64,000 bases of DNA from a virus (Duplodnaviria > Heunggongvirae > Uroviricota > Caudoviricetes), in IMG/VR virus record IMGVR_UViG_3300032280_000361. The stretch is one strand, 5' to 3'. Made by a program: the position numbers and the translations under genes. The notes beneath the pieces were generated by a model. It was not told where the DNA came from, did no database searches, and saw nothing but the letters and a program-made list of their open reading frames with translations. Below, piece by piece: positions 2,560 to 51,867 of the stretch. Each line of letters starts with the position of its first letter. The first letter of the stretch is position 1.

Positions 2560-3210
2560 TTATTTGTGTATATATTGATAATCCCACGCATCCTTCTTTA
2601 CGTTCCTCATCGCCTTTCCGAACAGGTCTCCGTTTATCTGAAACCAACAATTATAACACAACATTCTAAGGTTATCGTATTTGTGGTTTCTTCTGTTTCC
2701 GTCCATATAATCCAAAAGAAGTGGAACTTTATTATCCGTTACTCTCGGTTCATCGTATCCACAATTGGCACAGACTTGAGGCATATATCCCGAAGATAAC
2801 AATCTTTTTTTTAATTTCCAATTCGGATATGAAGGATTGTTTCCCTCCAATATGTTTTCCAACGCCCAACTCTTTCTCCCTTTGTTTAGTTTCTTAATCC
2901 CTACCCCAGCTTCATTCTTACAATTCTCAAATACCCCATACATCTTAGCATACTTCTTATAGGTTGGATAACTCACCCCCAATAAACGGGCACAATGTTT
3001 AGCCGATTGAGCCTGTTTCTGCATATCCTCTATTTCCGATTGTAATAGTTGACGTGATAATCTACCCTGTCTTAGGATTCCCCCAACCGGTTTATCAACT
3101 CTGTTTCTCTCCGCTTCTTCTTTGGCTAATTTGTCGTAGTAATCTTTGTAATTGGCGTTTGTGATAAACACCTTTTCGACCTTTTTGTCGTCTTCTTCAT
3201 TTTCACTCAT
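2560..3210 (-). CDS. HTH plus Zn-finger HNH-like protein
   Basis: CARLLGVSYPTYKKY helix-turn-helix; CANCG...LDYMDGNRRNHKYDNLRMLCYNC. Confidence 0.7.
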   Translation of the reverse strand: MSENEEDDKKVEKVFITNANYKDYYDKLAKEEAERNRVDKPVGGILRQGRLSRQLLQSEIEDMQKQAQSAKHCARLLGVSYPTYKKYAKMYGVFENCKNEAGVGIKKLNKGRKSWALENILEGNNPSYPNWKLKKRLLSSGYMPQVCANCGYDEPRVTDNKVPLLLDYMDGNRRNHKYDNLRMLCYNCWFQINGDLFGKAMRNVKKDAWDYQYIHK

Positions 3211-3255: not shown

Positions 3256-3345
3256 CTAAAATTGACGACTATCTTTGTAGTAGTTGTATATTCCTACTCC
3301 GGCTGCTATGATAATCAATTGTAGTTTTATTAAGAGTAGTTTCAT
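3256..3345 (-). CDS. putative 29-aa membrane peptide (not in ORF track)
   Basis: MKLLLIKLQLIIIAAGVGIYNYYKDSRQF; ATG overlaps the upstream stop. Confidence 0.45.
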   Translation of the reverse strand: MKLLLIKLQLIIIAAGVGIYNYYKDSRQF

Positions 3346-3551
3346 TCTATTCCACTAAGTTTAAGAAACTCTTTATCATTGAATGTTACCTTCTCAGAGT
3401 AGAACTTTTGCATCATCTTATCAGCAATCTCTTTTCTGTTATCCATATCATTTACCATAAGGAGTATTTCAGCTACACCTACAACCATATCTCTATCGAA
3501 ATCATGATTCGGTTCTTCAACTTCTTTTAGTAAATTATTAAGTCTTAACAT
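3342..3551 (-). CDS. small protein with MxRLxxLLxE leader (putative head-internal protein)
   Basis: begins MLRLNNLLKE. Confidence 0.6.
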   Translation of the reverse strand: MLRLNNLLKEVEEPNHDFDRDMVVGVAEILLMVNDMDNRKEIADKMMQKFYSEKVTFNDKEFLKLSGIE

Positions 3552-3569: not shown

Positions 3570-4016
3570 TCAAAAAATTTTGGTCTTTTTGAGGACTTTT
3601 TTGATAGTATCCCCCCACCCCCTTTTTTTCCATACTCCTTTATCGATTACATAAAAATCATCTGTATTTCTATCAATAAATTGGTAGGTCGCTGATTGTA
3701 GTTCGAACCAACTATCAAGTTCTTCTAATACTACTTTGGGTGAAAATTCACAACAGCTATAAAGGTCAAATTGGAACATCGCAGGATTGGTATTATCCCA
3801 AACGTGGATTGAACCATGTGAAGTTGCCAATGTTACTGTCCCTGTGATACCTTCGTTTCCAGGTTCATTTACATATACTGATGTTGGTCCGGCTACAACC
3901 TTCATTCCGACTGTATTAACTAATTGTGTAAAAAATATATTGAGGATTTTCTCTGTCTTTGGTGGAGTTTTCATATAACCCTTTACCAATAGATGTAAAT
4001 GATTTGGTATAAACAT
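3570..4016 (-). CDS. speD: S-adenosylmethionine decarboxylase proenzyme-like protein
   Basis: HLLV, GITGTVTLATSHGSIHVW, FDLYSC motifs of pyruvoyl AdoMetDC. Confidence 0.75.
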   Translation of the reverse strand: MFIPNHLHLLVKGYMKTPPKTEKILNIFFTQLVNTVGMKVVAGPTSVYVNEPGNEGITGTVTLATSHGSIHVWDNTNPAMFQFDLYSCCEFSPKVVLEELDSWFELQSATYQFIDRNTDDFYVIDKGVWKKRGWGDTIKKVLKKTKIF

Positions 4017-4210: not shown

Positions 4211-5275
4211 CTATTGTATATAAGCATTCAATTCATATTCATTTTGTCCACCATGTAAACTTCTTGTTTTAGAATTATCTGAATTTCTCTTATAAGTTCC
4301 CATACCATAAACTTGAATATGAAGATGTTTCTTTTGTGGTTTACCATCTTTAGTTAATTGGATAGAAAATCTATTTGTTTTTCCATCGGATGGTTTTTTA
4401 GGCCCCATTCCTATTTGTCTAAAAGCATCTTCATCATCTATTTCATATCCTTTTTTTTCTGCATATTCTCTAGCTGATTGAATTGCCGATGTATATGTGT
4501 AGTGATATACCGGATAATCTGATTTTGCTTCTTCCATTACACCCTTAAGTCTCATTGATTCATTCTTCATATATCCTTTGTTATCGAATACAGATTGAAT
4601 CTTATCTGCTTCTTTATGGAAACCATTCATTCTTAATGTGAATGCAATACCATCTGCTGCTTCAACTCCACCCCATCCAGAAGATGCTGCTACTTTTCTA
4701 CCGAATTCATGTGCATTATCATCACCTCCCCAATATTCGGAACTATCTACTCCATTCTTTCTTATATCAGCCATTTTCTCCTTATACTTAGGGTCATCCA
4801 TTGATGGGTAGTTTACTTTCTTAGCCCACTCAGGTTTACCTTCAATTGATGCAACTAATTCTCTAGCTTCATCGTGGAAATTAGCATCAGTTAAAGCCTC
4901 AACTGCTGCCTGATACATTACTTTTTTATATCCTTCGTTACCCAACTTCTGTGGAGTAATTCCAAATTTCTCTGCCGCTGCTTTAGCTTCTTTATTTACT
5001 TTTGGATTACCTGGTCTTTTTTTAGCTGGCTCTGATTTAGGTTCTTCCTTTTTAGGTTCTTCCGCTTTTTTAGGTTCTACTTTTTTAGAACTTGCAGAAG
5101 CTCCACCTTTAGGTTTAGATACCGAATCTGATTTTTTAGAAGCTTCACCAGCAGTTGTTTCTTTACCTGCTATGTTTACCTTCGTAGTATCTCTCACTTT
5201 GTGCTTCTCTTTATAAGCATCAAATGCTGCTTGAGAGCCAAAATTTATTTCACTTAATAGTTGCTTTAAATTCAT
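4211..5275 (-). CDS. putative head-internal multi-module protein
   Basis: leader MNLKQLLSE; K/E/P linker; internal ESMRLKGVMEE junction. Confidence 0.6.
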   Translation of the reverse strand: MNLKQLLSEINFGSQAAFDAYKEKHKVRDTTKVNIAGKETTAGEASKKSDSVSKPKGGASASSKKVEPKKAEEPKKEEPKSEPAKKRPGNPKVNKEAKAAAEKFGITPQKLGNEGYKKVMYQAAVEALTDANFHDEARELVASIEGKPEWAKKVNYPSMDDPKYKEKMADIRKNGVDSSEYWGGDDNAHEFGRKVAASSGWGGVEAADGIAFTLRMNGFHKEADKIQSVFDNKGYMKNESMRLKGVMEEAKSDYPVYHYTYTSAIQSAREYAEKKGYEIDDEDAFRQIGMGPKKPSDGKTNRFSIQLTKDGKPQKKHLHIQVYGMGTYKRNSDNSKTRSLHGGQNEYELNAYIQ

Positions 5276-5289
5276 TTTATCTTAATATT

Positions 5290-5562
5290 TTAAAATCCTA
5301 TTGAAATGTTATTTCCTAAATCATCTTCTACCCAACGAGCTTTTGCTGCTATTAATTTTTTCATAGTATCAACATCAAATCTATATGCACCATGCCCACC
5401 TTGTATTTTTATAGCAACAATATATCCATGTATTCCACTCCAAATTACATCAGCCTTTCCACCAATGATTCCTTCAAATGCTTTAATTTGCTTTTGCTTA
5501 ATAGAATCTAATTCTTTGAATTCGATTTCAGATGCTTCGTTTAATTGAGATAATCTTATCAT
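5290..5562 (-). CDS. small protein with MIRLSQLNE leader
   Basis: ORF; leader shared with neighbours. Confidence 0.6.
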   Translation of the reverse strand: MIRLSQLNEASEIEFKELDSIKQKQIKAFEGIIGGKADVIWSGIHGYIVAIKIQGGHGAYRFDVDTMKKLIAAKARWVEDDLGNNISIGF

Positions 5563-5563
5563 A

Positions 5564-7267
5564 TTAATTACTAAATTGTGCTATTACTTTTTTCTGAATA
5601 GGATTGCCTGGCTTTCCAACTAATGCTGTTACAAAATCCATTCTATCTTTCAATCCACCTTTCTTCAAAGATAGATATAATTTATTTGAATTTATATTAT
5701 TCTTTTCTATAAAATCTTTAACTGCGTTTGCTCTAGAAGCAGTTAAACCTGCTATACCATTTGCATCCGCATTTATATCTTCGTTAATATGATGTTCATG
5801 CACTCCACCACATCCACAATCATGATTCTCATTACATCCACAATCATGCTCTTCGTTTACTGATTCATTAAATCTAGAGTCAGCCTTTACTCTTTTTACA
5901 ATATCATCGATTGTATTTACATAAAAATCGTTTCCTTTACTAGGTTCTACCCACCAATCAGTTCCTCCGGATTCATAATCCATTTGAAAATTTCCCCACA
6001 CATATCCATTTTTGTATATAGTATGTGTTTTTGAAGGGCCTTCAGATTTAAGTTCTATATCTCCTACTTTAAGAATGTATCCTTTTTTATTATTTTTTTG
6101 CCAAGTATCTGCAAGTTTACCTTCGTTTATCGATTCTTTAATTGTAGATTTTAATTTAGATAACTCTCCTTTTAATTTAGAATCTAATCCTCTTTCAATT
6201 CCCCAATTAAATGATGCCTTAACTAACATATCTAATGGTAAGTTACTATTCTTTTTGCCAAATGGTGAAGTTCTAATCCAATCAATATAGTGTTGTGCTA
6301 ATTCTTTTGACATTTTAGTTCCTTCTGCTCTAGAAGAATCTCCGTTAACTACAGATTGTAATATTTTGGTAGCCATTCCATGAGCACCTTCGTTTACTGA
6401 TTCGTTTCTTTTATCTAATTCGAAGTATATTTTATTTTTAACTTTCTGAAATGTATCAGCTGCCAATTTAGCATTACCAACAAATCCCATTTCTAAACCA
6501 ATATCTTTTGAACGAACACCTTTTTTAGCTAACGCCATAATTTGTGCCGCAACTGGTTTAGATACTACTTGTGTTGGAGTATCTACGTGAATAACATGCT
6601 TAAACTCTTCAGTTACTACAGATTCCATTTTTGAACGAATCTTACTTGCTATATTTGATAGTTGAGATTTATCGATTCCAATTGCATCTATTACCTGTGC
6701 AAGTAATTGTAATTTAGCGTTATTACTTAACTTTGAATCCTTTATTTTTTCAATAGCCAATTCCAATTTAGCTTTTACAGCTGCAGGTATTGTTGCTGGT
6801 GGTAATTCAGTTGCATCCTCTTTTACTGAACTGTATTTTTCTCTGATTTCTTTTAAACCCAACTCATCTTCAAATTCGATTATATCTTTGTAATCTGCAT
6901 CAAAAAGTTCCTCTTCTACATCTTTTCTACTTGCTTTAGGGTTTTTACATACAACTGCACCTATTTTCTTTTTAGTGAATGAACCACCTCTATCATACAT
7001 TTTCATAATATGCTTAAAATGAACATCGTTACCACTCATTTCATTCATACCACTCTTTTCTCTAATTACTTCTCTCACTACAGATTTAAGTTGTTCTTTA
7101 ACATGGTCAGGTAAACCATCGTGCTTAGTAGATGCAAAATCTTTAGCATCACTATCTTTCATATCCGCTGATACCTTTGCCACCTCCGGTGATGCAGGAG
7201 TTTTTCCCTTATCAGCGGCGTGAACCATTCCCATAAATCGTTGTTGTGCTTTACTTGCTGCTGGCAT
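5564..7267 (-). CDS. ESVNE-linked modular polyprotein with DUF3008-like N-terminus
   Basis: MPAASKAQQRFMG...DFASTKHDGLP; ESVNE/ESINE/ESVVTE linkers every 70-90 aa. Confidence 0.65.
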   Translation of the reverse strand: MPAASKAQQRFMGMVHAADKGKTPASPEVAKVSADMKDSDAKDFASTKHDGLPDHVKEQLKSVVREVIREKSGMNEMSGNDVHFKHIMKMYDRGGSFTKKKIGAVVCKNPKASRKDVEEELFDADYKDIIEFEDELGLKEIREKYSSVKEDATELPPATIPAAVKAKLELAIEKIKDSKLSNNAKLQLLAQVIDAIGIDKSQLSNIASKIRSKMESVVTEEFKHVIHVDTPTQVVSKPVAAQIMALAKKGVRSKDIGLEMGFVGNAKLAADTFQKVKNKIYFELDKRNESVNEGAHGMATKILQSVVNGDSSRAEGTKMSKELAQHYIDWIRTSPFGKKNSNLPLDMLVKASFNWGIERGLDSKLKGELSKLKSTIKESINEGKLADTWQKNNKKGYILKVGDIELKSEGPSKTHTIYKNGYVWGNFQMDYESGGTDWWVEPSKGNDFYVNTIDDIVKRVKADSRFNESVNEEHDCGCNENHDCGCGGVHEHHINEDINADANGIAGLTASRANAVKDFIEKNNINSNKLYLSLKKGGLKDRMDFVTALVGKPGNPIQKKVIAQFSN

Positions 7268-7276
7268 CTTTTAGAA

Positions 7277-7540
7277 TTATTTTAATGTTACTTTGAATTT
7301 TTGCTCAGCTAAAGGTAGAAATACATCATATTCAGCATCATCTGTAATAGTGAAATTTTCCGTTAATTGAGTTGGAGTAACATAAATAAGAGTTCCTTCT
7401 GGATTTTCATCGGTTACCAAAAAACAATCGATAAGGATTGCACCTTCTTCAGCATATGTTCCATCAAATAAAACTTGACTCTCTGCTACCTCTTCGGTAA
7501 TTGGTTTATGGTTTTCTAATTTGAATTCTGATATTGTCAT
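7277..7540 (-). CDS. acidic hypothetical protein
   Basis: ORF with TATTTATA motif upstream. Confidence 0.6.
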   Translation of the reverse strand: MTISEFKLENHKPITEEVAESQVLFDGTYAEEGAILIDCFLVTDENPEGTLIYVTPTQLTENFTITDDAEYDVFLPLAEQKFKVTLK

Positions 7541-7573
7541 AATATAGTGTTTTCTTGTATGTGTATATAAATA

Positions 7574-8269
7574 TTATACTATTGAATTAAAGTAATTTTC
7601 TTCGAATAATATACCGGTTAATATTGTATATCTATGAAAATCTTCTGTTTTTATAGGAGTTACTGAATGTTTAGGGTTTATATGCATAAAATCTAATACT
7701 GCAAAGTTACCAAATAGAGGTTGTTGCTTATCAACTCCTTCGATTACTAACTCTCCGCCATCCTCTTCTTTCCAATCATCGTTTAGATAAATAAGTATAT
7801 TACACACCATTCTTTTTCCACCTCCATCAGCATGCGGTTCTATCCAACATCCTTTATTGAAATGAGTAAGGTTTACATTACTTTCGTTTATTTCCCAAAT
7901 TTTATCCATCATATCCTTACCATATGAATACTTAAATACCTCTAAGAATAAGTTTCTCATAGTAGGTATTAAACTCATTTTAAGGTGCGACATTTGGTTA
8001 TCTTCAGTACCCCAAGTAAAGAATGTTTGCCAAAGTTTACCATCCTTATTTCCATCTAAATGCATGTTTTTAACCCCTTCCGCTTCTTCATAACTATTTG
8101 TTTGAGTAGCTTCGTAAGGAACATTCTTATAATATGAATGGGTTACTCTAGTAAAGTTTTCAGGATTCCTAATAGATTTAAGTTTTTCTAACTCTTCTAT
8201 TAGTGATGGGTTTATATCAGAAAGATGTCCAAACAGACATCCTTTAGTTGTTAATTCTTCTCTAACCAT
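7574..8269 (-). CDS. 2OG-Fe(II) oxygenase (prolyl-4-hydroxylase-like)
   Basis: HAD, ILIYLNDDW..EDGGEL, HSVTP, RYT motifs. Confidence 0.85.
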   Translation of the reverse strand: MVREELTTKGCLFGHLSDINPSLIEELEKLKSIRNPENFTRVTHSYYKNVPYEATQTNSYEEAEGVKNMHLDGNKDGKLWQTFFTWGTEDNQMSHLKMSLIPTMRNLFLEVFKYSYGKDMMDKIWEINESNVNLTHFNKGCWIEPHADGGGKRMVCNILIYLNDDWKEEDGGELVIEGVDKQQPLFGNFAVLDFMHINPKHSVTPIKTEDFHRYTILTGILFEENYFNSIV

Positions 8270-8813
8270 GTTTAACCAATTGGATTTTCTTTCTAATATT
8301 AGGGTACTTATTTAATCTTTTTCTAACTGCATCTACATTCTTAGATGAATCATCTACAAAATAAATATTATCATATCCCTTTCTTTCGATTTCCTTTTCT
8401 ATCCAATCGGCTTTTGATTCTGGATTATTATCCCCTAATGCAACTACGAAAACATCTTTGATTCCGCTATCTCTTATGAAATTATATACAGGTTGGTATG
8501 CGGCTCTTGCAGTTAAAATATACACTGCTCTATCAGAGGTTGCCGCCATATTCTTAAGTAATTGGAAATATCCCTTAATTACCTTTGGATTCTTTACTTT
8601 ATCAAAATCTTTGAAATCATACACATCTCCTGGTTTCTCTTTGTAAACCGCATATTGTCCAGGTGTAAGTTTGGATTTTGCTCCATTCTTATGTGTAATA
8701 TAAATAAAGGATGTAGTTTTTACTAAGGTATCATCAAAATCGAATACCCTAAGTTTCTTATCTTCTGTAAATAAACTTCTAGCTATCATAGTCAAATATA
8801 GTGAATTATTCAC
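8262..8813 (-). CDS. HAD-superfamily phosphatase
   Basis: VFDFDDTL, ILTAR, FVDDS..N motifs. Confidence 0.8.
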   Translation of the reverse strand: MNNSLYLTMIARSLFTEDKKLRVFDFDDTLVKTTSFIYITHKNGAKSKLTPGQYAVYKEKPGDVYDFKDFDKVKNPKVIKGYFQLLKNMAATSDRAVYILTARAAYQPVYNFIRDSGIKDVFVVALGDNNPESKADWIEKEIERKGYDNIYFVDDSSKNVDAVRKRLNKYPNIRKKIQLVKHG

Positions 8814-8825
8814 AGACTTCCAAGT

Positions 8826-9140
8826 TTATCCGTTAATTTGTTTCCTAGTCTTTGGTAGTGATTTTTCTAACTTATCGTTTTCTTTGGTAAGGAATTCAAC
8901 TTTAACACTTAATGCCGCCACTTCTCTTGTAAGTTCTAACACCATAGTACGAAGTTCATCTTTCTCTTTTGAACTATTTTCTAATAAGGCTTCCAATTTA
9001 GAGATACGGTCTTTACAATCGTGTCTGATAAACTCATCATCCCTATCTTTGTTTAGTGCTCTCTTTTCGTAGTATCTCCAAGCACCAGTTCCTCCTAATA
9101 CGGTAATTGCCGTAATTAATACTGAATATAAGTTTTCCAT
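8826..9140 (-). CDS. membrane-anchored coiled-coil protein
   Basis: N-terminal TM helix followed by heptad repeats. Confidence 0.6.
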   Translation of the reverse strand: MENLYSVLITAITVLGGTGAWRYYEKRALNKDRDDEFIRHDCKDRISKLEALLENSSKEKDELRTMVLELTREVAALSVKVEFLTKENDKLEKSLPKTRKQING

Positions 9141-9403
9141 TATCCTTCTATTTTTACACCTTGTAGGTATGTTCCGATTTTATCATCATATTTCATAACA
9201 TAATGAATTCCATCCATTCCAATATGTTTATTATATTTAGGAATTTTAGACCACTCTTTTTTAGTAATAGTATGCTTTAATTTATCCTCATTAACAACTA
9301 TTTCTTCTTCCTCTACTTTTTCTACTACAGGAGTGGGGGAATTTCTACTCATCCCTAAAGAAGGAAGAGTTACTATACTATTTACTATATCCATTAATCT
9401 CAT
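9140..9403 (-). CDS. hypothetical protein (MRLMDIV leader, VVNE junction)
   Basis: ORF within the modular-protein cluster. Confidence 0.55.
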   Translation of the reverse strand: MRLMDIVNSIVTLPSLGMSRNSPTPVVEKVEEEEIVVNEDKLKHTITKKEWSKIPKYNKHIGMDGIHYVMKYDDKIGTYLQGVKIEG

Positions 9404-9410
9404 TGTAGTA

Positions 9411-10364
9411 TTATTTTATGTTTTTTAATCTTAATGATTCTGCTTTGAATGGGTTAAATAATCCTCTGCTATTCACTTCTTTTTCAGTAGATGGTGCTAC
9501 TTTTGCATTCTGCTGATGTTTGTGTTTGATTGGATTGTATTTTTCTAATTCATCAACATCAACATTACCATCCGCATCTGTTTTAACCTCACCATATTTA
9601 TCATCACCCAATCTTACGATACCAACTGTCTTTGTTCTTGTATTATAAACTAAATCATCTTTTTTGAATTTACCTTCGTTTACTGATTGTTCTTTTTTTA
9701 GTTTACCTAAAGTTCTTTGTTTTAGTATTTTTTTTAAATCTGCAATTAATTCCTCGTTACCCTCATATCTACTAAGGTTTATAATCATATCAGTTATTGC
9801 ATCTTTAGAATAGTTATCCAAGTTTTCGTTTACTGATTCTAATTTCAAACTTCTCTGTGCATTAGTTAAACCACTAATAATAGATTTCAATCCACCTTTA
9901 ACTCCTTCGGTATCTCTATCTTTAACTCTTTTATCTAAAATCTTTGTATTCATTTTTAGAAAGTTAATGATTGCGTTTTCAACTGCATTCCATCTAATTT
10001 CTTCTTCATTTACCGATTCAGCATTTAAAGTAGGGAATCTATCTGCTCCATTAATACCGGCTTCGTTTGTTCCGTATTCGTGATAGTTAGATGATGCTTG
10101 AGAAATTAAGTTTTCTGCTTTAGCGATATGGTCTTGAATCCAAGCAGGAATTTCTTTTTCATTTTTACCCATTTTAGCTTTTAACTCAGTTGTCATCTTA
10201 ATAATAGTATCCAATGAGTTTTGAGCCATAGAAACTTCGTGGTCTTCTTCCTCTTTAACAATAGTTTCAACTTGTGGTGTAAACGCTCTAGCATATGGGT
10301 TTGATACCACTTGTCCAGGCTTCGCTCCCAATGTCTGCATTATTCCTTTTAAATTCATATTCAT
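9411..10364 (-). CDS. ESVNE-linked modular polyprotein
   Basis: three ESVNE/QSVNE linkers separating 50-90-aa modules. Confidence 0.65.
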   Translation of the reverse strand: MNMNLKGIMQTLGAKPGQVVSNPYARAFTPQVETIVKEEEDHEVSMAQNSLDTIIKMTTELKAKMGKNEKEIPAWIQDHIAKAENLISQASSNYHEYGTNEAGINGADRFPTLNAESVNEEEIRWNAVENAIINFLKMNTKILDKRVKDRDTEGVKGGLKSIISGLTNAQRSLKLESVNENLDNYSKDAITDMIINLSRYEGNEELIADLKKILKQRTLGKLKKEQSVNEGKFKKDDLVYNTRTKTVGIVRLGDDKYGEVKTDADGNVDVDELEKYNPIKHKHQQNAKVAPSTEKEVNSRGLFNPFKAESLRLKNIK

Positions 10365-10365
10365 A

Positions 10366-11313
10366 TTATTTATATCTACTTAATATTTTGAGAGATACTT
10401 CTATCATCTTAAACAAACCCATTTTTATCATATTGTCTTTGTTTACGTTTGATAGCCCATTATATATGTTTAAAACAATAGATGCAGTTTGCATATCTAC
10501 TTTTATTTTCTTACCACTTTTTGGGTCTTTTACACTTTGATATTGTTGATTATTAATAATATCTTTTAATTGAGAAATAATTTCTGGTTCGGATGCTTCG
10601 TTTACTGATTCTCCTCTGCCCAATTTATCTTTCATTTTATTCACATCATCTTCCGAAGGTGAACCGTTAATAGAACCACCTGGAAGGTTTAATCCAGTTC
10701 CTGCTGGTAATCCTATTTCATTATTAGGTGATTTGATACCATACCCTTTCTTTATATTAGAAAGTGTTTGTAAAGCATTTTTTAATCTATCTTGAAATAA
10801 TTTCTTTTGTTCAGCAGATTTTGTATCAGATAGTTTTTGCTTCAACGCTTTAATTCTATCGTTTATTTTTTGGATTCTATCTCCTTCTTCACTTTCTTCT
10901 AATCCACCCTCTACAAAGTTTTTGATTTCAGATTTAACTACCATATTATTGATAGCATCTTTGATTTGAGCTTTATTTAATCCGATTACTTTCACATCAC
11001 CTGCTTCATTTGTATATGCCGCATGCTTTAATCCGATATCTTCTAAATACTTAATAAATCTTTCTCCTATCATTGGTTGTTTCTTTTCTTTTGTTTGAGG
11101 TAATCCCTGTGCAACATGCTGAGGTTCTTGACCTTCTTCAGTTTTCCATCCACCACCTGCTGCTTTGTATTGTTTTGAAGCCCAACCGTTTGCATAAGCC
11201 GATGGATATACATCAAACTTCTTTTTTGCCTGAGAAACGTAATACTGCCACTTCGATGGGTTAGTAGGAACATTTTTCTCCGCTACTATGTTCTTTTTGT
11301 TTAATGTGTTCAT
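10366..11313 (-). CDS. modular protein with KKFDVYPSAYAN domain and ESVNE linker
   Basis: N-terminal domain resembles T4-like phage hypotheticals; ESVNE at 10596. Confidence 0.6.
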   Translation of the reverse strand: MNTLNKKNIVAEKNVPTNPSKWQYYVSQAKKKFDVYPSAYANGWASKQYKAAGGGWKTEEGQEPQHVAQGLPQTKEKKQPMIGERFIKYLEDIGLKHAAYTNEAGDVKVIGLNKAQIKDAINNMVVKSEIKNFVEGGLEESEEGDRIQKINDRIKALKQKLSDTKSAEQKKLFQDRLKNALQTLSNIKKGYGIKSPNNEIGLPAGTGLNLPGGSINGSPSEDDVNKMKDKLGRGESVNEASEPEIISQLKDIINNQQYQSVKDPKSGKKIKVDMQTASIVLNIYNGLSNVNKDNMIKMGLFKMIEVSLKILSRYK

Positions 11314-11319
11314 ATTGTA

Positions 11320-11327
11320 TATAAATA
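11320..11327 (-). promoter_or_regulatory. putative late promoter TATTTATA (representative copy)
   Basis: same 8-mer intergenic at 7566, 11320, 12098, 45267, 45668, 54367, 61959, 62991, 63592. Confidence 0.6.
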
Positions 11328-11340
11328 TATCTTTTTTTAA

Positions 11341-12093
11341 TTAAGATATACTTTCGGTTTTGTTTTTTCCATCACAATGTGCTTTTTGTGAGAAACCTTT
11401 GGGGTTATTACAATCAATTGAGTTTTTATACTCCGCACTCCACTTTTCAACCAATCCTTCACTAGCTCCCGTCTTTACTAATGTTGGTTTTTGTCCCTTC
11501 TTTTGTTCACCACCTTTTTTAGCATCTCCTGCATCGGATTGTGCCGCTCTCTTTCTCTTCACAAATGATGCTCTACCATCCTTACCCAACTTAGCTGATT
11601 TTTCATTTGAAAGGCAAGCTGCATATGCTGAACCCTCCTCACTATCTCCACATTTACCAACTTTTTCTCCCTTAGTGTTATATCTATCCCACCCACCAGT
11701 CTTTCCACTACCAAACCACTTACGAAGGTCTTCTTTTACCGCTAAATCATGTGATGAAGGTAGAACATTTACACCTACCTTTTTACCTAAGAATATGGCA
11801 ATTGGAGTGAATGGAATTGGAGCAGGAATAAACTTAAGTGAAACCAAAAATAATATCTTAACTATATCTCCGGATTGTGCTTTTAGGAATCTTTTCTCAC
11901 TATCACTAACTTCTTTCCCCAATATCATTGATTGAAGGATATGAGCTGCTACGATAGTTTCTTTCTTTTCTCTATTAGTTACCACTTTTAGAGTATCCCA
12001 ATTTGTATTGATATACTTAATAGATTTATCAATCCAATTGGCTACCTTTTCTTTAGCAGTATCAAACACTCCTTCATGTATATTCTTTCCCAT
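11341..12093 (-). CDS. modular protein: LETM1-like segment plus DLRKWF and IDCNNPKGFSQKAHC domains
   Basis: GKEVSDSEKRFL..DIVK..hydrophobic..NVLPSS; modules separated by VKE/LVE. Confidence 0.55.
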   Translation of the reverse strand: MGKNIHEGVFDTAKEKVANWIDKSIKYINTNWDTLKVVTNREKKETIVAAHILQSMILGKEVSDSEKRFLKAQSGDIVKILFLVSLKFIPAPIPFTPIAIFLGKKVGVNVLPSSHDLAVKEDLRKWFGSGKTGGWDRYNTKGEKVGKCGDSEEGSAYAACLSNEKSAKLGKDGRASFVKRKRAAQSDAGDAKKGGEQKKGQKPTLVKTGASEGLVEKWSAEYKNSIDCNNPKGFSQKAHCDGKNKTESIS

Positions 12094-12111
12094 TGGATAT
12101 AAATATAATAT

Positions 12112-46689: not shown

Positions 46690-49600
46690 TTATTTTTTAC
46701 ATTTTACTATCCAAGTTGAATAAGATACATTTATACCCGCTTTTCTCTTTCCGCTCGCATCACCTTTAATTTTGAGTTCTCCCGGATTTGGATTGAATTT
46801 AACACAGCACTTTTCATTTATACCATCCAAAACTTCCATTGAAATTCTAGTTCGTGCACCGGTACCACTTTCTACAAATCTAACATTACCAAAGTTATTT
46901 GATTTAACGTCTTCATTGAACATCATCTCAAATAACATCCCAGTCTTATTATATAATTTTAATCCTCTATCAAATTCAGCATCCATTTCCTCTTCCCCTA
47001 AACTATTTTGATATGATTTTTTAGCCTGCTGGTAAGCGGACGGTTTACCACCAATACCATTAATTGCTTTATTTTCTACATCAGAAACCATTCTTTCCGC
47101 TTGTTCAGCAGTTTTACCCTGTCCAATTAAAATTTCTATCATATGGGCTCTCTGTACTTTATAACCTTCTTCCGCTTTATCAATTGCTTCTTTTGAAGGT
47201 GGATAATCTCCATAAATAGCATGATAGCTATCCATCATTGAATCTAATACTTCTTTTGTTTTTTCATTATTAAATGTACTTCCATCAGTTTTTGAAGGGC
47301 CGGCACTTGCACCACCCTTACCCAATTTAATGCTTTCAGCATCACTATCAATAAATGAAATACTATTTGCAGAGTATTCATTTGCATAAAATTCCGCTAA
47401 TTCTTCTGGAGTTGCGTTTTCCGGTGGGGTTTTTTGTTGATTAAATGAAACTATATCAACAGTTGGGAAGTTTGATGATGAAGGTAAAAATGCCTGATTT
47501 CCTTTTCCGATTTCATTCATAAATACTAAAACTTCCGCTATATCAGGACCACCTGATGCTATATCTTTATCTCTTCTTATATTTTGTAATACATTTGTAA
47601 GTTTACCTAAATATTCTGCTGATGCTTTTTCTTTTTCCTCTGCACTCATAGAATCCCAATTCGGATTGTTTATGGGTGCGGATTTTTCTATCTCATCTAT
47701 ACTTTTAAATAAGTCTGCATATTTTTCTAAAATTTCTTCTTCAGATAATCCCGAATATTTTTTTATAGATTTTAATATACTTTTTCTAGTTTTATCTATT
47801 GTATTCTTAAGGGTCTTTTTTCTATTATCATTGGTATCAGTTGGACCATAATCCACCACTTCCATTTCACCATCTTTTGAAAGTTTATCAACCATTGTGT
47901 TTCCTCTTTCAATAGCAGCAATTACTTTCCTAGCTTCTTCGTTTGCCTCCTCTTCAGAAGAACCTTGTTTAATAAATTGTTCAACTAAATTTGTTTGTTC
48001 TACTAAAGTTTTCTTATCCGGCACTGGTCTTTTAGTATAAGTAACCCCATCTACTGTTACGCTATTTCCATTTTCGGAAACTTCAAATTTTACTTTTCTG
48101 CGTTTTTTATTCATCTTATTTGCAGTCCAATCTTTTTTATTTACATACGCACCAGTTTGGGTTCTAATAGGTAATCCATATTTATTTACCATACTATCAT
48201 TCCACTCCTCTGTTTTAGTATCATAATCCTCAACCTTTTGAGGGTCTATATTCATTTGGATTTTTTCTCTTGAATTAGAATTAAAATCTCCTTCTGTTTT
48301 AGCTATATAAAGACCAATATCATTTCCTCCTCCAACTCTAACCGCTAACCACTTACTTGCAATTTCTGAATTATTAGGGTCTACATCTTCTCCTTTAAGA
48401 ATTTTGGCAATAGTATCTTTTAATATTTCTTTAGTTGAATCATCCGCTTCAGAATTATCGATATGTTTATTAGCCTCTGATATACGCTTTTTTATAACAT
48501 CATCGCTTATTTTCAAATTAGTTCTTGCAGTTGCTACATCTACATTAGGAGTACCCTCTTCTTTAGCGTTTTGAACTTCTTTATTTGCTTCAGGTTGGTC
48601 TTTAACATCAATAGATTTAACCATTACTTCTTTACCTGAGGGAGTTTTCATAGTTAAATTTTCTTCAAATAATAAATGTATAAATTTAATATTTTCTTCT
48701 ATGAATACTTTATTAACTACACTTTCAGATTTCATATATTGAGCAGTTCCACCTTTTGTATCTGAATAGTATCCTCCGCCTAATGGATATATAACACCAC
48801 CTTCTTTTTCATTAGGTTCTTTTGGTTTAGGTAACTCTCCATCTTTAGCATCTGCTTTTTTAGCTGCAATTCCCATATCTTCCGCAAACTTATTCGCCAT
48901 TGGAATCGCATCTTTAATATCCATATCGATTACCGTTGATTTCATTGGTATCGGATTATTAGGATTCTTAGCGTTATGTGCTACAATTGCAGCCCATCTA
49001 TGATGTCCATCGATTACATACCCATCTCTACTCACATATATTGGTGCAGTAATCTTTGGATGATTAGGGTCTTTCTCCAACGCTCCCATCATACCAATTA
49101 CTTTACCACCAACTAAATCTTTCTGTGTTGCTTTTAGTTTATCAGCAGGTACTTCTGTTTGTAATACTTTGATGTTCTTCTCTTTCAACATCTCTCTGAA
49201 TACTGGCTCTGTATCTACTTCGCCATCTTTATCCGTTTCCATTCCTGCTGCTCTACTACCATCCACTGCCTTTCCTTTGAATTGAGGCATTTCTTCTCTA
49301 GGTATTCCTTTATTATCATCACAATATAAGTTGGTTCCAGGAATAGTAATATCACATAAGTTGATGTCCGGTGCAGGTTCTCCTTTAGCCTTTGCATCAT
49401 CTAACATTTTACTAATCTTACTTATATCGGTATTGAATTGGTTTAAATCGTTTGGAGAAATTCCATCTAATGCTTTACCATCTTTACTGAATGTTTCTTT
49501 ATCAGCTTTCGGCATTTCATCTGCAATTTTTTCAGGTTCAACTTTCTTAGTTTCAGTTTTTCTATCCGAACCTTTTTGCATCATCTTATCAACTAATTCA

Positions 49601-51867
49601 ACATGACTCTCTCCTGCAATTACAATTGGTATCTTACCTTTCGCTACTAATTCTTTTCTTTTCTCTATAATATTCTCATCTCTCGTATCATTGAACGCAA
49701 CTTGAATATCATTTATTTTTGTTTCCTTATCACCATTATCCTCCGGAAATGCTAATCTGAATAATGTACCTCTATCACCACTTCCTTCTGGATTTTCTTC
49801 ATTAGGTACTTCTCCCGATGGGTTATCAAAATTTTCTATTGGTGGGAATCCAGCTTCTTTAACCGCATCTTCTAAGAATTTTCTACCTTCATCATCTAAG
49901 AAATCTTTTGGTGACATTGTATCAGTTCCCTCACCTTGCCCAATCATACTAGCCCAATTACCAGCTTTCACTTGTGAATGATTAAGACCAGTTTTCTCCA
50001 TTTGTTTTTTATACAACTTAGATTGGTCATCATGTACATCTAACTCATCACCATCCCATGTATCAATTCCAGCTCCCAATTTCTCAAATCTCGGAGCTGC
50101 ATAATCCATTTCATCGTTAAATTCTAAATCTCCTTCATCATTTGTTGCACCACCCTCTCCTAAGAATACAATATTTTCCCATTCTTCTTGAGGAATAGTT
50201 GCTTTTATTTGGTCAATTATATCATCAACCATTTTGGTTTCACCATGAACGGTTCCAAACATCATTCCACCATCTTCAAATTCTATTGTTTGGATTTCTT
50301 TACCTGATTTTTTACCTTTAAATTTCTGTACTTTTGAATCAGTATCTTCATTAGCCGATTCTAATCTAGTAGGTTCTCCAACTGTACCTTTTCCAGAATC
50401 TTCTTGTTTATTCTTATCTATCGTTTGTTGTGATTTAAATGCTCTGGCTTTAGCTTTATTCTGTGTACTTGCTTTAGGGTCATCTAAAACTAAATCAGGA
50501 TTATCTTTTGGTAAAGTTTTTTCAGCTTCCTTTTCTTTGGTATCCAATGCTTTTGTAGCAGTATCAATCATAGATGCAGTATCCGGCTTATCATTATCAG
50601 ATTCTCCATCAGTTGGTTCTTCTGAAGGTGTTTGATTGTTTAACTCAGCTTTTTCTTTATCTGTTAAAGGTCTTAAATTACCTTTATCATTTTTAAGCTC
50701 AGCTTGTCCTCCATCTTTACTAGAATAATATCCACCTCCTAAGTGAAACTTACCCGGAAATTCTTTTGATTCACCCTTACCATCTTCTTCATTTAGTATT
50801 CTATTAAACAATTCATTTAAATCTATTACTTCCGATTGTGGTTCGTTTGGTTTTTTCTTTTCGTTGTATGAATCAACCATAGACATCATTAATTCATCCG
50901 GTATATCCATATTCTCCATATTATCAGCCACAGCATCCATAAAATCAGCTAACATTCTTTCATCATCTCCATCTGCTCCCGCAAATAAAGATGCTCTACC
51001 AACTCCAACTATAATAGTTTCGGCTACGGCGTGTGGTATCAATTCCATTGCAACGTGCTTAGCAAAATAAGCAGCTCCATGTGCCAATCCACCTCCCGCT
51101 GCAGCAAATAATGCAGTACTAGCTACCTTAATTCCAACTGATATTAATGCCTTCTTTTGTTCTTTTTCTAATGGTTTTCCACTTACCAAATTCTTAACGG
51201 CTGCACCAGCAGCTTTAAATGTATGAACCTCATGCTTAAACCCATGAGCAATAGCATTTCTAGCACCTTTTACTTTATCTTTTAACGTATCCGCAAAACT
51301 TCTACGAGTTGGTGAACCAGGTTTATCTTCTCCTTTTTTGAAAAATTCCTTTTCTTTTTCACTCCATTTTTCTACTTTACTTTTCAATACATCCGCAGGT
51401 GTTTTAACTACGGGTGCAGTTTTCATAGGAGCAGGTGCTTCTACGGAAGAATCTTTTGGTTTTTCTACTGAAGGTGTTTCGGGTGAAGGTTGATTTGGTT
51501 TAGGAGTGTCGTTAGGCTTTTCCGCAGTAGGTGGTTTACTACCCTTTGAATCGAACTTAGCTTTTTCTTCAGGAGTTACGGGTCTTAGATTACCCTTATC
51601 GTTTTTAAATTCAGCTTCTCCTCCATCTTTAGAGGAGTAGTATCCTCCACCTAAATGGAATTTGCCTGCAAATAAACCAGATTCTTTTTCATTTTCCGCC
51701 TCATTTATAAACATCTCTTCCAACAACGGTTTAAGATGTCCATAACCCAATTCATCACATATTTCTAATAACGCAAAAACCTGCTCTCTATCCTTCATAT
51801 TAGGGAATGGATATGTTACAGATAATTCTAAAAGAAGCTCATCTATGATTTTATTAATATCAGCCAT
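46690..51867 (-). CDS. 1725-aa multi-module protein with ParB/Srx-like domain and internal repeats
   Basis: LKATQ...PIYVSRDGYVIDGHHRWAA; three LGGGYYS repeats. Confidence 0.7.
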   Translation of the reverse strand: MADINKIIDELLLELSVTYPFPNMKDREQVFALLEICDELGYGHLKPLLEEMFINEAENEKESGLFAGKFHLGGGYYSSKDGGEAEFKNDKGNLRPVTPEEKAKFDSKGSKPPTAEKPNDTPKPNQPSPETPSVEKPKDSSVEAPAPMKTAPVVKTPADVLKSKVEKWSEKEKEFFKKGEDKPGSPTRRSFADTLKDKVKGARNAIAHGFKHEVHTFKAAGAAVKNLVSGKPLEKEQKKALISVGIKVASTALFAAAGGGLAHGAAYFAKHVAMELIPHAVAETIIVGVGRASLFAGADGDDERMLADFMDAVADNMENMDIPDELMMSMVDSYNEKKKPNEPQSEVIDLNELFNRILNEEDGKGESKEFPGKFHLGGGYYSSKDGGQAELKNDKGNLRPLTDKEKAELNNQTPSEEPTDGESDNDKPDTASMIDTATKALDTKEKEAEKTLPKDNPDLVLDDPKASTQNKAKARAFKSQQTIDKNKQEDSGKGTVGEPTRLESANEDTDSKVQKFKGKKSGKEIQTIEFEDGGMMFGTVHGETKMVDDIIDQIKATIPQEEWENIVFLGEGGATNDEGDLEFNDEMDYAAPRFEKLGAGIDTWDGDELDVHDDQSKLYKKQMEKTGLNHSQVKAGNWASMIGQGEGTDTMSPKDFLDDEGRKFLEDAVKEAGFPPIENFDNPSGEVPNEENPEGSGDRGTLFRLAFPEDNGDKETKINDIQVAFNDTRDENIIEKRKELVAKGKIPIVIAGESHVELVDKMMQKGSDRKTETKKVEPEKIADEMPKADKETFSKDGKALDGISPNDLNQFNTDISKISKMLDDAKAKGEPAPDINLCDITIPGTNLYCDDNKGIPREEMPQFKGKAVDGSRAAGMETDKDGEVDTEPVFREMLKEKNIKVLQTEVPADKLKATQKDLVGGKVIGMMGALEKDPNHPKITAPIYVSRDGYVIDGHHRWAAIVAHNAKNPNNPIPMKSTVIDMDIKDAIPMANKFAEDMGIAAKKADAKDGELPKPKEPNEKEGGVIYPLGGGYYSDTKGGTAQYMKSESVVNKVFIEENIKFIHLLFEENLTMKTPSGKEVMVKSIDVKDQPEANKEVQNAKEEGTPNVDVATARTNLKISDDVIKKRISEANKHIDNSEADDSTKEILKDTIAKILKGEDVDPNNSEIASKWLAVRVGGGNDIGLYIAKTEGDFNSNSREKIQMNIDPQKVEDYDTKTEEWNDSMVNKYGLPIRTQTGAYVNKKDWTANKMNKKRRKVKFEVSENGNSVTVDGVTYTKRPVPDKKTLVEQTNLVEQFIKQGSSEEEANEEARKVIAAIERGNTMVDKLSKDGEMEVVDYGPTDTNDNRKKTLKNTIDKTRKSILKSIKKYSGLSEEEILEKYADLFKSIDEIEKSAPINNPNWDSMSAEEKEKASAEYLGKLTNVLQNIRRDKDIASGGPDIAEVLVFMNEIGKGNQAFLPSSSNFPTVDIVSFNQQKTPPENATPEELAEFYANEYSANSISFIDSDAESIKLGKGGASAGPSKTDGSTFNNEKTKEVLDSMMDSYHAIYGDYPPSKEAIDKAEEGYKVQRAHMIEILIGQGKTAEQAERMVSDVENKAINGIGGKPSAYQQAKKSYQNSLGEEEMDAEFDRGLKLYNKTGMLFEMMFNEDVKSNNFGNVRFVESGTGARTRISMEVLDGINEKCCVKFNPNPGELKIKGDASGKRKAGINVSYSTWIVKCKK
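50669..51666 (-). repeat. duplicated 29-codon unit GKFHLGGGYYSSKDGGxAExKNDKGNLRP
   Basis: copies at 51581-51666 and 50669-50754; degenerate third copy near 48737-48798. Confidence 0.85.

Follow-up and report, generated by a model that had tools for sequence, protein, structure and literature searches.

What kind of gene product arises when small, mutually unrelated segments are strung together in one reading frame, and why should the joint between them be conserved as DNA? The question is raised by a locus at positions 5564-11313 of a 64,000-nucleotide stretch of tailed-phage DNA (Caudoviricetes; IMG/VR record IMGVR_UViG_3300032280_000361), the whole of which is called the window below. A sequence-only reading of this DNA had described three open reading frames (ORFs), at 5564-7267, 9411-10364 and 10366-11313, as strings of modules separated by the pentapeptide ESVNE or a close variant. 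The description holds for all three, but the last of them has a single linker. The answer favoured here is that these genes probably encode cargo polyproteins that are targeted to the capsid and cut at the linkers by the prohead protease, the linker DNA acting at the same time as an in-frame recombination site. What is established, and taken up below, is the anatomy of the ORFs, the shuffling of their modules with exact breakpoints, the conservation of the linker at the DNA level, the fact that leader and linker are equivalent, and the linkage with the protease gene that relatives show.

At the DNA level the joint is a 16-mer, GAATCAGTAAACGAAG. Seven copies with at most two mismatches had been claimed, and on recheck all seven are found at the positions given for them, all on the minus strand, inside the three ORFs, and encoding ESVNE, ESINE or QSVNE. 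Three lie in ORF 5564-7267: two exact copies, both read as ESVNE, at 6388-6403 and 5851-5866, and a copy with two mismatches, read as ESINE, at 6121-6136. With the variant linker ESVVTE at 6608-6625 (minus strand), the order along this protein is ESVVTE, ESVNE, ESINE, ESVNE. ORF 9411-10364 holds an ESVNE copy with two mismatches (10004-10019), an ESVNE copy with one (9824-9839) and a QSVNE copy with one (9674-9689), while the copy in ORF 10366-11313 is exact and encodes ESVNE (10596-10611). The reported spacings of 270, 267, 150 and 180 bp are correct, as is the use of AAC for Asn in six of the seven copies; the sole AAT is in the copy at 10004. In a six-frame translation of the 64 kb, [EQ]S[VI]NE occurs three times in ORF 5564-7267, three times in ORF 9411-10364, once in ORF 10366-11313 and nowhere else. 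The segments between the joints are indeed unrelated to each other (11 modules, best blastp E value 0.098). Their supposed length of 50-90 residues fits only in part: nine are 50-95 amino acids (aa) long and the others are longer, the exceptions being two N-terminal pieces of 220 and 239 aa that are themselves composite.

Short AT-rich repeats can recur by chance, and nothing else speaks for the idea that the pattern comes from chance, codon bias or an assembly artefact. With up to three mismatches allowed, the 16-mer has nine matches where 0.97 are expected, a number reached in none of 100 shuffles, and the linker is present in 134 ORFs at least, spread over about 90 independent metagenome contigs. 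Codon usage was compared between 138 linkers with unique context, taken from 87 ORFs, and the remainder of the same ORFs. Serine is encoded by TCA or TCG in 92% of linkers (38% elsewhere in the same ORFs), valine by GTA in 95% (49%), asparagine by AAC in 68% (33%) and the first glutamate by GAA in 100% (85%); the exact 15-mer GAATCAGTAAACGAA accounts for 46% of linkers, with about 4% expected. The p values range from 1e-10 to 1e-37 at four of the five positions and reach 5e-4 at the last Glu, figures in which descent inflates the independence of the linkers. Linker codons are thus far more uniform than usage predicts, and codon bias alone cannot account for their pattern, even allowing for descent. 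Between the match counts, the spread over independent contigs and the codon tests, an origin by chance, bias or misassembly is already refuted.

The repeat is also where related genes part company. Thirteen IMG/VR loci encode relatives, and the module strings differ among them. In locus L001 the flanks are about 93% identical to the window (92.7% at the 6388 breakpoint). DNA homology stops at base 6388, the last base of one 16-mer, and is back at base 5866, the first base of another; between these two points, two modules of the window have been swapped for one unrelated module in L001. A second L001 breakpoint, at base 9825, again falls at a linker, and the two modules downstream of it are swapped for another in L001. 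Relative to L002, loci L003 and L004 have a 168-nt module insertion flanked by GAATCG, at the same junction as the ESINE linker at 6121-6136. Over 110 genes there are 422 internal ends of DNA homology (at 85% identity or more), of which 167 come within 3 nt of a linker, where chance gives 17.9 and the maximum in 500 trials was 34; of 189 ends of protein homology, 71 are near a linker, against 25.5 by chance. The expectation that module content changes among relatives with breakpoints at the repeat is therefore borne out by L001, by L002-L004 and by the 110-gene count, and the placing of breakpoints at linkers agrees with the suggested use of the repeat as a microhomology site for in-frame gain, loss and shuffling of modules. 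Modules were likewise found in other orders and as standalone genes in relatives, as had been anticipated. The 120 database proteins that share the middle modules of the window show 72 distinct architectures made from 63 module families; many of them have a constant front (DUF3008 plus one further module) and a constant, Cys/His-rich back, with a variable middle. Single modules stay 90-99% identical while moving between contexts, the most conserved being one that starts GAHGMATK and the Cys/His-rich one at the C-terminus. Modules are shuffled at the linker, with exact breakpoints.

Recombination alone can explain both the DNA conservation and the exact breakpoints. The products could then be uncleaved multidomain proteins, with ESVNE as a flexible linker whose DNA is kept only as a recombination scar or substrate. 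This seems quite improbable, since it leaves several properties of the joints unexplained, the first of which is that a protein motif is kept in every junction variant seen, despite differing DNA and residues. Across 188 junctions, anchored on the downstream module only, each of the commonest variants has [VIL]-x-E at or just before the module start. The P2 residue is mostly [NT] and G, E or A follows the motif; residues farther upstream vary. The motif persists in EEVNE, GKINE, ETIME and EPVVTE, where other positions have changed. S[VI]NE is followed by A at 67 of 175 non-redundant sites, by G at 43 and by S at 14, which makes 124 for these three residues together. The T4 prohead protease gp21 cuts after Glu in L/I-X-E, and the T4 capsid targeting sequence (CTS) has 10 aa, of which residues 8 and 10 control processing (PMC9026906). 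As read from these junctions, the linker motif fits a cutting rule of the T4 gp21 type; in T4, an Asp in place of the final Glu prevents processing.

A second property is that standalone genes have, in place of the linker, a leader that ends in this motif. The same mature module is found behind a standalone N-terminal leader in one phage and behind an internal linker in another: MIKLTELLKEGVINE then GTRSQVG corresponds to ...ESIINE then GTRSQVG, MKLTDLVPLKE then GKFKK to ...ESINE then GKFKK, and MKLLDILNE then GKEPLIITQL to GESVNE then ASEPEIISQL in the window. Leader and linker are thus equivalent and interchangeable. In the window itself, 5290-5562, 4211-5275, 3342-3551 and 10366-11313 each have an N-terminal leader, about 10 aa long and with [LIV]-x-E at its end. 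In the complete 256-kb phage G003 (188-197 kb; loci L026-L027), about ten small, otherwise unrelated genes start with MK.[VI]KLFE.[FY][VI][NT]E, and several of these leader genes contain one internal ES..NE linker each. The G003 leader, in the form MK.[VI]KLFE.[FY][VI]NE, is very like MKTYQEFIAE of T4. In capsid proteins of three divergent lineages, [LIV]-x-E then A is kept where the propeptide boundary is expected, as LLDE, LISE and IVSE, each followed by A. MAQLINE then A in the G003 capsid protein was considered as a cleavage site and rejected, as alignment to T4 gp23 puts this range at the start of the T4 propeptide; the capsid site of the clade is likely the LLDE then A that lies farther in.

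The third property left unexplained by uncleaved proteins is that the genes cluster around the prohead protease. T4 gp21 had been offered as the precedent for cleavage, and relatives make that link concrete: their polyprotein genes flank Peptidase_S77 inside a T4-type head module. Loci L004 and L061 encode Peptidase_S77 (PF03420; 94.8 and 93.8 bits, cut-off 27) between the Portal_T4 and Gp23 genes. The gene order in L002-L004 is terminase, portal, two conserved genes, a polyprotein, the protease (197 aa), a protein of 260 aa that contains KSINE, and a second polyprotein; in L004 the polyprotein adjacent to the protease has 507 aa. Relatives of this protease are encoded by at least 595 IMG/VR stretches. 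In 83 protease-bearing contigs, with gene positions ranked relative to Peptidase_S77, linker-bearing ORFs occupy rank -1 in 31 of 82 cases, -2 in 14 of 80 and -3 in 12 of 79; at positive ranks they occur at +2 (16 of 52) and +3 (12 of 42), in a cluster that spans +2 to +5, whereas rank -6, rank -4 and ranks +6 to +9 have none. For the four window proteins, the homologues situated no more than 3 kb from the protease number 56 of 57, 25 of 25, 14 of 17 and 21 of 22 (116 of 121 in total), the 25 of 25, counted in protease-bearing contigs, being homologues of ORF 9411-10364 and the 21 of 22 homologues of ORF 4211-5275.

In G003 the protease is fused to a scaffold part; the protease domain closes with KRVNE then A, and both ESTNE and ESYNE occur in the scaffold part. 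The L004 protease (11264-11857) has PMNESVNRKL near its C-terminus, at residues ~163-170, with Arg where the cleaved Glu would be, and KRVNE then A of G003 is in the same place; judging by the motif, PMNESVNRKL could be a self-processing site or a pseudo-substrate of the protease.

The neighbourhood of the protease also suggests the chief rival role, that of prohead core or scaffold proteins like T4 gp22, gp67 and gp68, which would help to build the head and then be chopped up, the fragments leaving it rather than being injected. In the relatives, the genes stand where T4 has genes 67/68, in the interval from portal to protease, and gene 22, in that from protease to capsid. T4 core proteins are broken into several pieces, most of which leave the head (PMC9026906), and the ES.NE motif recurs in the scaffold part of G003. 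Such a role is nevertheless unlikely. A separate conserved scaffold-like protein (starting MANSKLLKEAIADAK) adjoins the capsid gene on the same contigs, and a content as variable as 72 architectures in 120 proteins is unexpected for an assembly factor. The modules are conserved at 90-99% identity across contexts, several of them fold confidently, and the window genes are away from any head gene. No sequence match to gp22, gp67 or gp68 was found among the window polyproteins.

The predicted structure suits a chain of separate domains. In the AlphaFold2 (AF2) model of ORF 5564-7267 the predicted template modelling score is 0.30 and there are confident separate domains, several with a predicted local distance difference test (pLDDT) of 85-97; at three of the four linkers pLDDT falls below 50. 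No function could be assigned to any module with Pfam, PHROGs, Foldseek against the PDB or the ESM Atlas: the Pfam and PHROGs scans yielded just DUF3008 and families of unknown function, and Foldseek gave no match in the PDB. Thirteen polyproteins scanned against Pfam contained neither a peptidase nor an effector domain, and the Pfam and PHROGs scans showed no homology to T4 IPI, IPII, IPIII or Alt. Weak matches to MC1, RNase_J_C and EF-hand were set aside, as no stretch passes alone and those to MC1 and EF-hand are also below the cut-off. Experimental support is indirect and comes from one homologue: SSCSM1_93, which is 62% identical to residues 1-67 of ORF 5564-7267 and includes DUF3008, is annotated as a virion protein of cyanophage S-SCSM1, for which 45 virion proteins were identified by mass spectrometry (PMC9602691).

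A scheme for processed, capsid-targeted cargo can be put together as follows. Each polyprotein would be a chain of small modules that fold independently, and the joint, E-S-[VI]-N-E then A, G or S, would be a site for Peptidase_S77, taken to cut after Glu in [LIV]-x-E. The chain would enter the prohead core by way of an N-terminal leader or the conserved N-terminal DUF3008 part. During head maturation it would be cut at every joint into separate proteins of 50-95 aa inside the capsid, and the mature modules would probably be ejected with the DNA, by analogy with T4 internal proteins. Because the 15 nt of the joint stay nearly identical, they are proposed to act as a short in-frame homology through which modules may be gained, lost and exchanged between genes and between phages.

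Several points weigh against this scheme. ORF 5564-7267 has no CTS-like leader, its start being DUF3008, and ORF 9411-10364 starts MNMNLKGIMQ without a nearby Glu; a targeting signal on these two proteins is therefore an assumption. No protease, portal or capsid gene was found within the 64-kb window. Nor are there ESVNE polyproteins beside the protease in Microcystis phage Mel-JY01 or Flavobacterium phage immuto, the nearest cultured phages by protease, and both were set aside as cultured models on that ground. The presumed capsid site, LLDE then A, is far looser than ESVNE, so part of the linker conservation may reflect DNA homology and not protease specificity. AF2 draws a helix through the ESINE joint, and the isoelectric points of the modules are mixed (5.0-9.6), unlike those of the basic T4 internal proteins. 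The linkers are related by descent, which means that the codon and breakpoint statistics overcount independent events. Finally, we infer targeting, cleavage, retention in the head, ejection and an effector role alike from reading sequences.

Two further features were seen in the cultured phages just mentioned. A scaffold-like gene of immuto (L113, 8955-10196), annotated as 'DNA polymerase phi-like', contains two copies of a repeat of about 60 aa, each following a protease-like site (GVNE then GFEQW; NLEE then GFEQW). In the head module of Mel-JY01 (L112), a gene annotated as ribosomal protein bS21 (9149-9376) lies between the protease and a scaffold-like gene.

Beyond processed cargo as such, a wider role for the 15-nt linker can be put forward tentatively, at somewhat under even chances: as protease cleavage site and in-frame recombination site at once, it would make up a cassette system at the protein level for capsid cargo, by which an abundant clade of environmental T4-related phages would exchange injected effectors, such as anti-defence proteins, from gene to gene and from genome to genome. 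A module inserted between one linker and the next would automatically be translated, packaged, released and delivered.

The three ORFs can now be considered with their neighbours, all on the minus strand. ORF 5564-7267 encodes a 567-aa polyprotein with an N-terminal DUF3008 (PF11450) at residues 3-56, scoring 25.8 bits against a cut-off of 24 (relatives reach 50.3 bits), followed by the modules, the C-terminal one of which is Cys/His-rich plus helical. Its middle modules are common to 235 database proteins (90% clustering) of 314-965 aa. The module after ESVVTE, which begins EFKHVIHVDTPTQ, is in L008 part of another polyprotein, where it stands behind ESINE. ORF 9411-10364, a 317-aa polyprotein, has four modules, joined by ESVNE, ESVNE and QSVNE. 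It ends in a leader-like C-terminal tail (9414-9440) that reads ESLRLKNIK and then stop; this has the look of a linker plus a truncated leader, 7 nt ahead of the start of the next gene, and the L001 counterpart ends ESVNKSLRLTKLK. The tail may be the scar of a split or fusion. The next gene, 9140-9403, encodes a single 87-aa module that starts MRLMDIVNS; in L008 (6681-7874) it is fused in frame, as ...ESVNE-ARLTDIVNS..., and its L001 orthologue has 75% identity.

ORF 10366-11313 encodes a 315-aa protein with a leader-like start, MNTLNKKNIVAE, the composite 239-aa N-terminal part and, at the end, a module of 76 aa. Two of its modules have standalone homologues: a gene of 82 aa with the leader MKLLDILNE (L037, 7951) for the terminal module, and a gene of 63 aa with the leader MIKLKDIISEEVLEE (L108, 11180) for the first. 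L001 is without this first module (~56 aa) and also without the 250-aa gene at 11341-12093. At this place some 960 nt of the window (11145-12104) are replaced by 54 nt in L001 (6229-6283), and the breakpoint is not at an ESVNE linker.

The cargo unit is more extensive than first described and also takes in ORF 4211-5275 and three small leader genes, among them 9140-9403. ORF 4211-5275, outside the span of 5564-11313, encodes a 354-aa two-part fusion with the N-terminal leader MNLKQLLSE and, ahead of its last module, an internal retained leader, ES-MRLKGVMEE, at 4529-4561. The last module corresponds, by eye, to a 100-aa standalone gene with the leader MKHTLLFEQFVTE in G003. The single-module gene at 5290-5562 (90 aa) has the leader MIRLSQLNE then ASE, which parallels the ASE behind GESVNE in ORF 10366-11313. 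The 69-aa gene at 3342-3551, with the leader MLRLNNLLKE, is assigned by its leader alone.

The window has a G+C content of 32%, and 76 of its 77 called genes are on the minus strand. Its family-B DNA polymerase shares 51% identity with the Mel-JY01 counterpart and about 32% with the enzymes of T4-like cyanophages. In the database record, the protein of ORF 5564-7267 sits on a contig of 293,220 bp, and the window is therefore taken to come from a large uncultured T4-related phage. Directly downstream of the cargo cluster, on the minus strand, are an HNH-endonuclease-like ORF (2560-3210; C-terminus CANCG...NHKYDNLRMLCYNC) and an S-adenosylmethionine-decarboxylase-like ORF (3570-4016; phrog_3125, E value 5.5e-16). 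Far from the cluster, a 1725-aa protein (46690-51867, minus strand) contains FINE then A at residue 54 and ILNE then E at residue 358; its site density, 0.12 per 100 aa, is not above the window average of 0.13.

Set against known systems, the linker polyproteins look most like a variant of the T4 internal-protein/CTS system, which with its hypervariable locus is the closest precedent. T4 internal proteins are packaged, trimmed and ejected, and one of them, IPI*, blocks a restriction enzyme (PMC3012670, PMC9026906). Like the leader-bearing modules described here, IPI, IPII, IPIII and Alt are small unrelated proteins with a common short N-terminal leader ending in [LI]-x-E. The protease of the relatives that share modules and linker with the window belongs, like that of T4, to the Peptidase_S77 family, and gene content varies between relatives, as at the hypervariable internal-protein locus of T-even phages. 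In T4, however, each cargo protein has its own gene and leader, whereas here up to about nine modules share a chain, the putative cleavage motif is repeated internally and its coding DNA is a conserved 15-nt in-frame exchange repeat.

The polyvalent proteins of phages and conjugative elements (Iyer et al. 2017; PMC5512222) also combine many unrelated domains in one polypeptide, are thought to be delivered with the DNA and processed, and show extensive domain shuffling. They differ in being large, in containing conflict enzymes that can be recognised as such and in processing themselves, usually by an embedded peptidase (MPTase). The modules here are tiny and have no peptidase domain, and processing would take place in trans, by the prohead protease at a short linker. 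In the giant phages phiKZ, 201phi2-1 and SPN3US, homologous prohead proteases cut many head proteins after Glu, in S/A-X-E or A-X-E, sometimes at several sites per protein (PMC9026906, PMC10052503). There, however, the several cuts strip long N-terminal propeptides off a single mature protein, and a cassette chain of exchangeable modules with a DNA-conserved linker has not been described. T4 gp22, gp67 and gp68 resemble the polyproteins of related contigs in gene position relative to portal, protease and capsid and in having several [LI]-x-E sites, putative cleavage sites in the polyproteins, but they are assembly factors that are conserved and whose pieces for the most part end up outside the head, and the proteins here are hypervariable mosaics of folded modules. 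The literature searched describes only cargo with one gene and one leader each (T4) or self-processing polyvalent proteins; no account of cargo polyproteins with prohead-protease sites as their joints was found in it.

Should cleavage and packaging prove true, the locus would represent a mode of loading changeable cargo in tailed phages for which no description was found: one gene would give rise to many injected proteins, and new ones would be plugged in by recombination at the 15-nt joint. The clade is abundant, with the 595 or more protease-bearing IMG/VR stretches counted above and 235 proteins with two window modules, so the modules would form a large untapped pool of small proteins. They probably act in the first seconds of infection, and anti-defence or takeover functions are therefore natural ones to look for among them. 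The linker rule offers a simple computational handle for finding such cargo, and suggests a design principle by which several proteins may be loaded into T4-type capsids.

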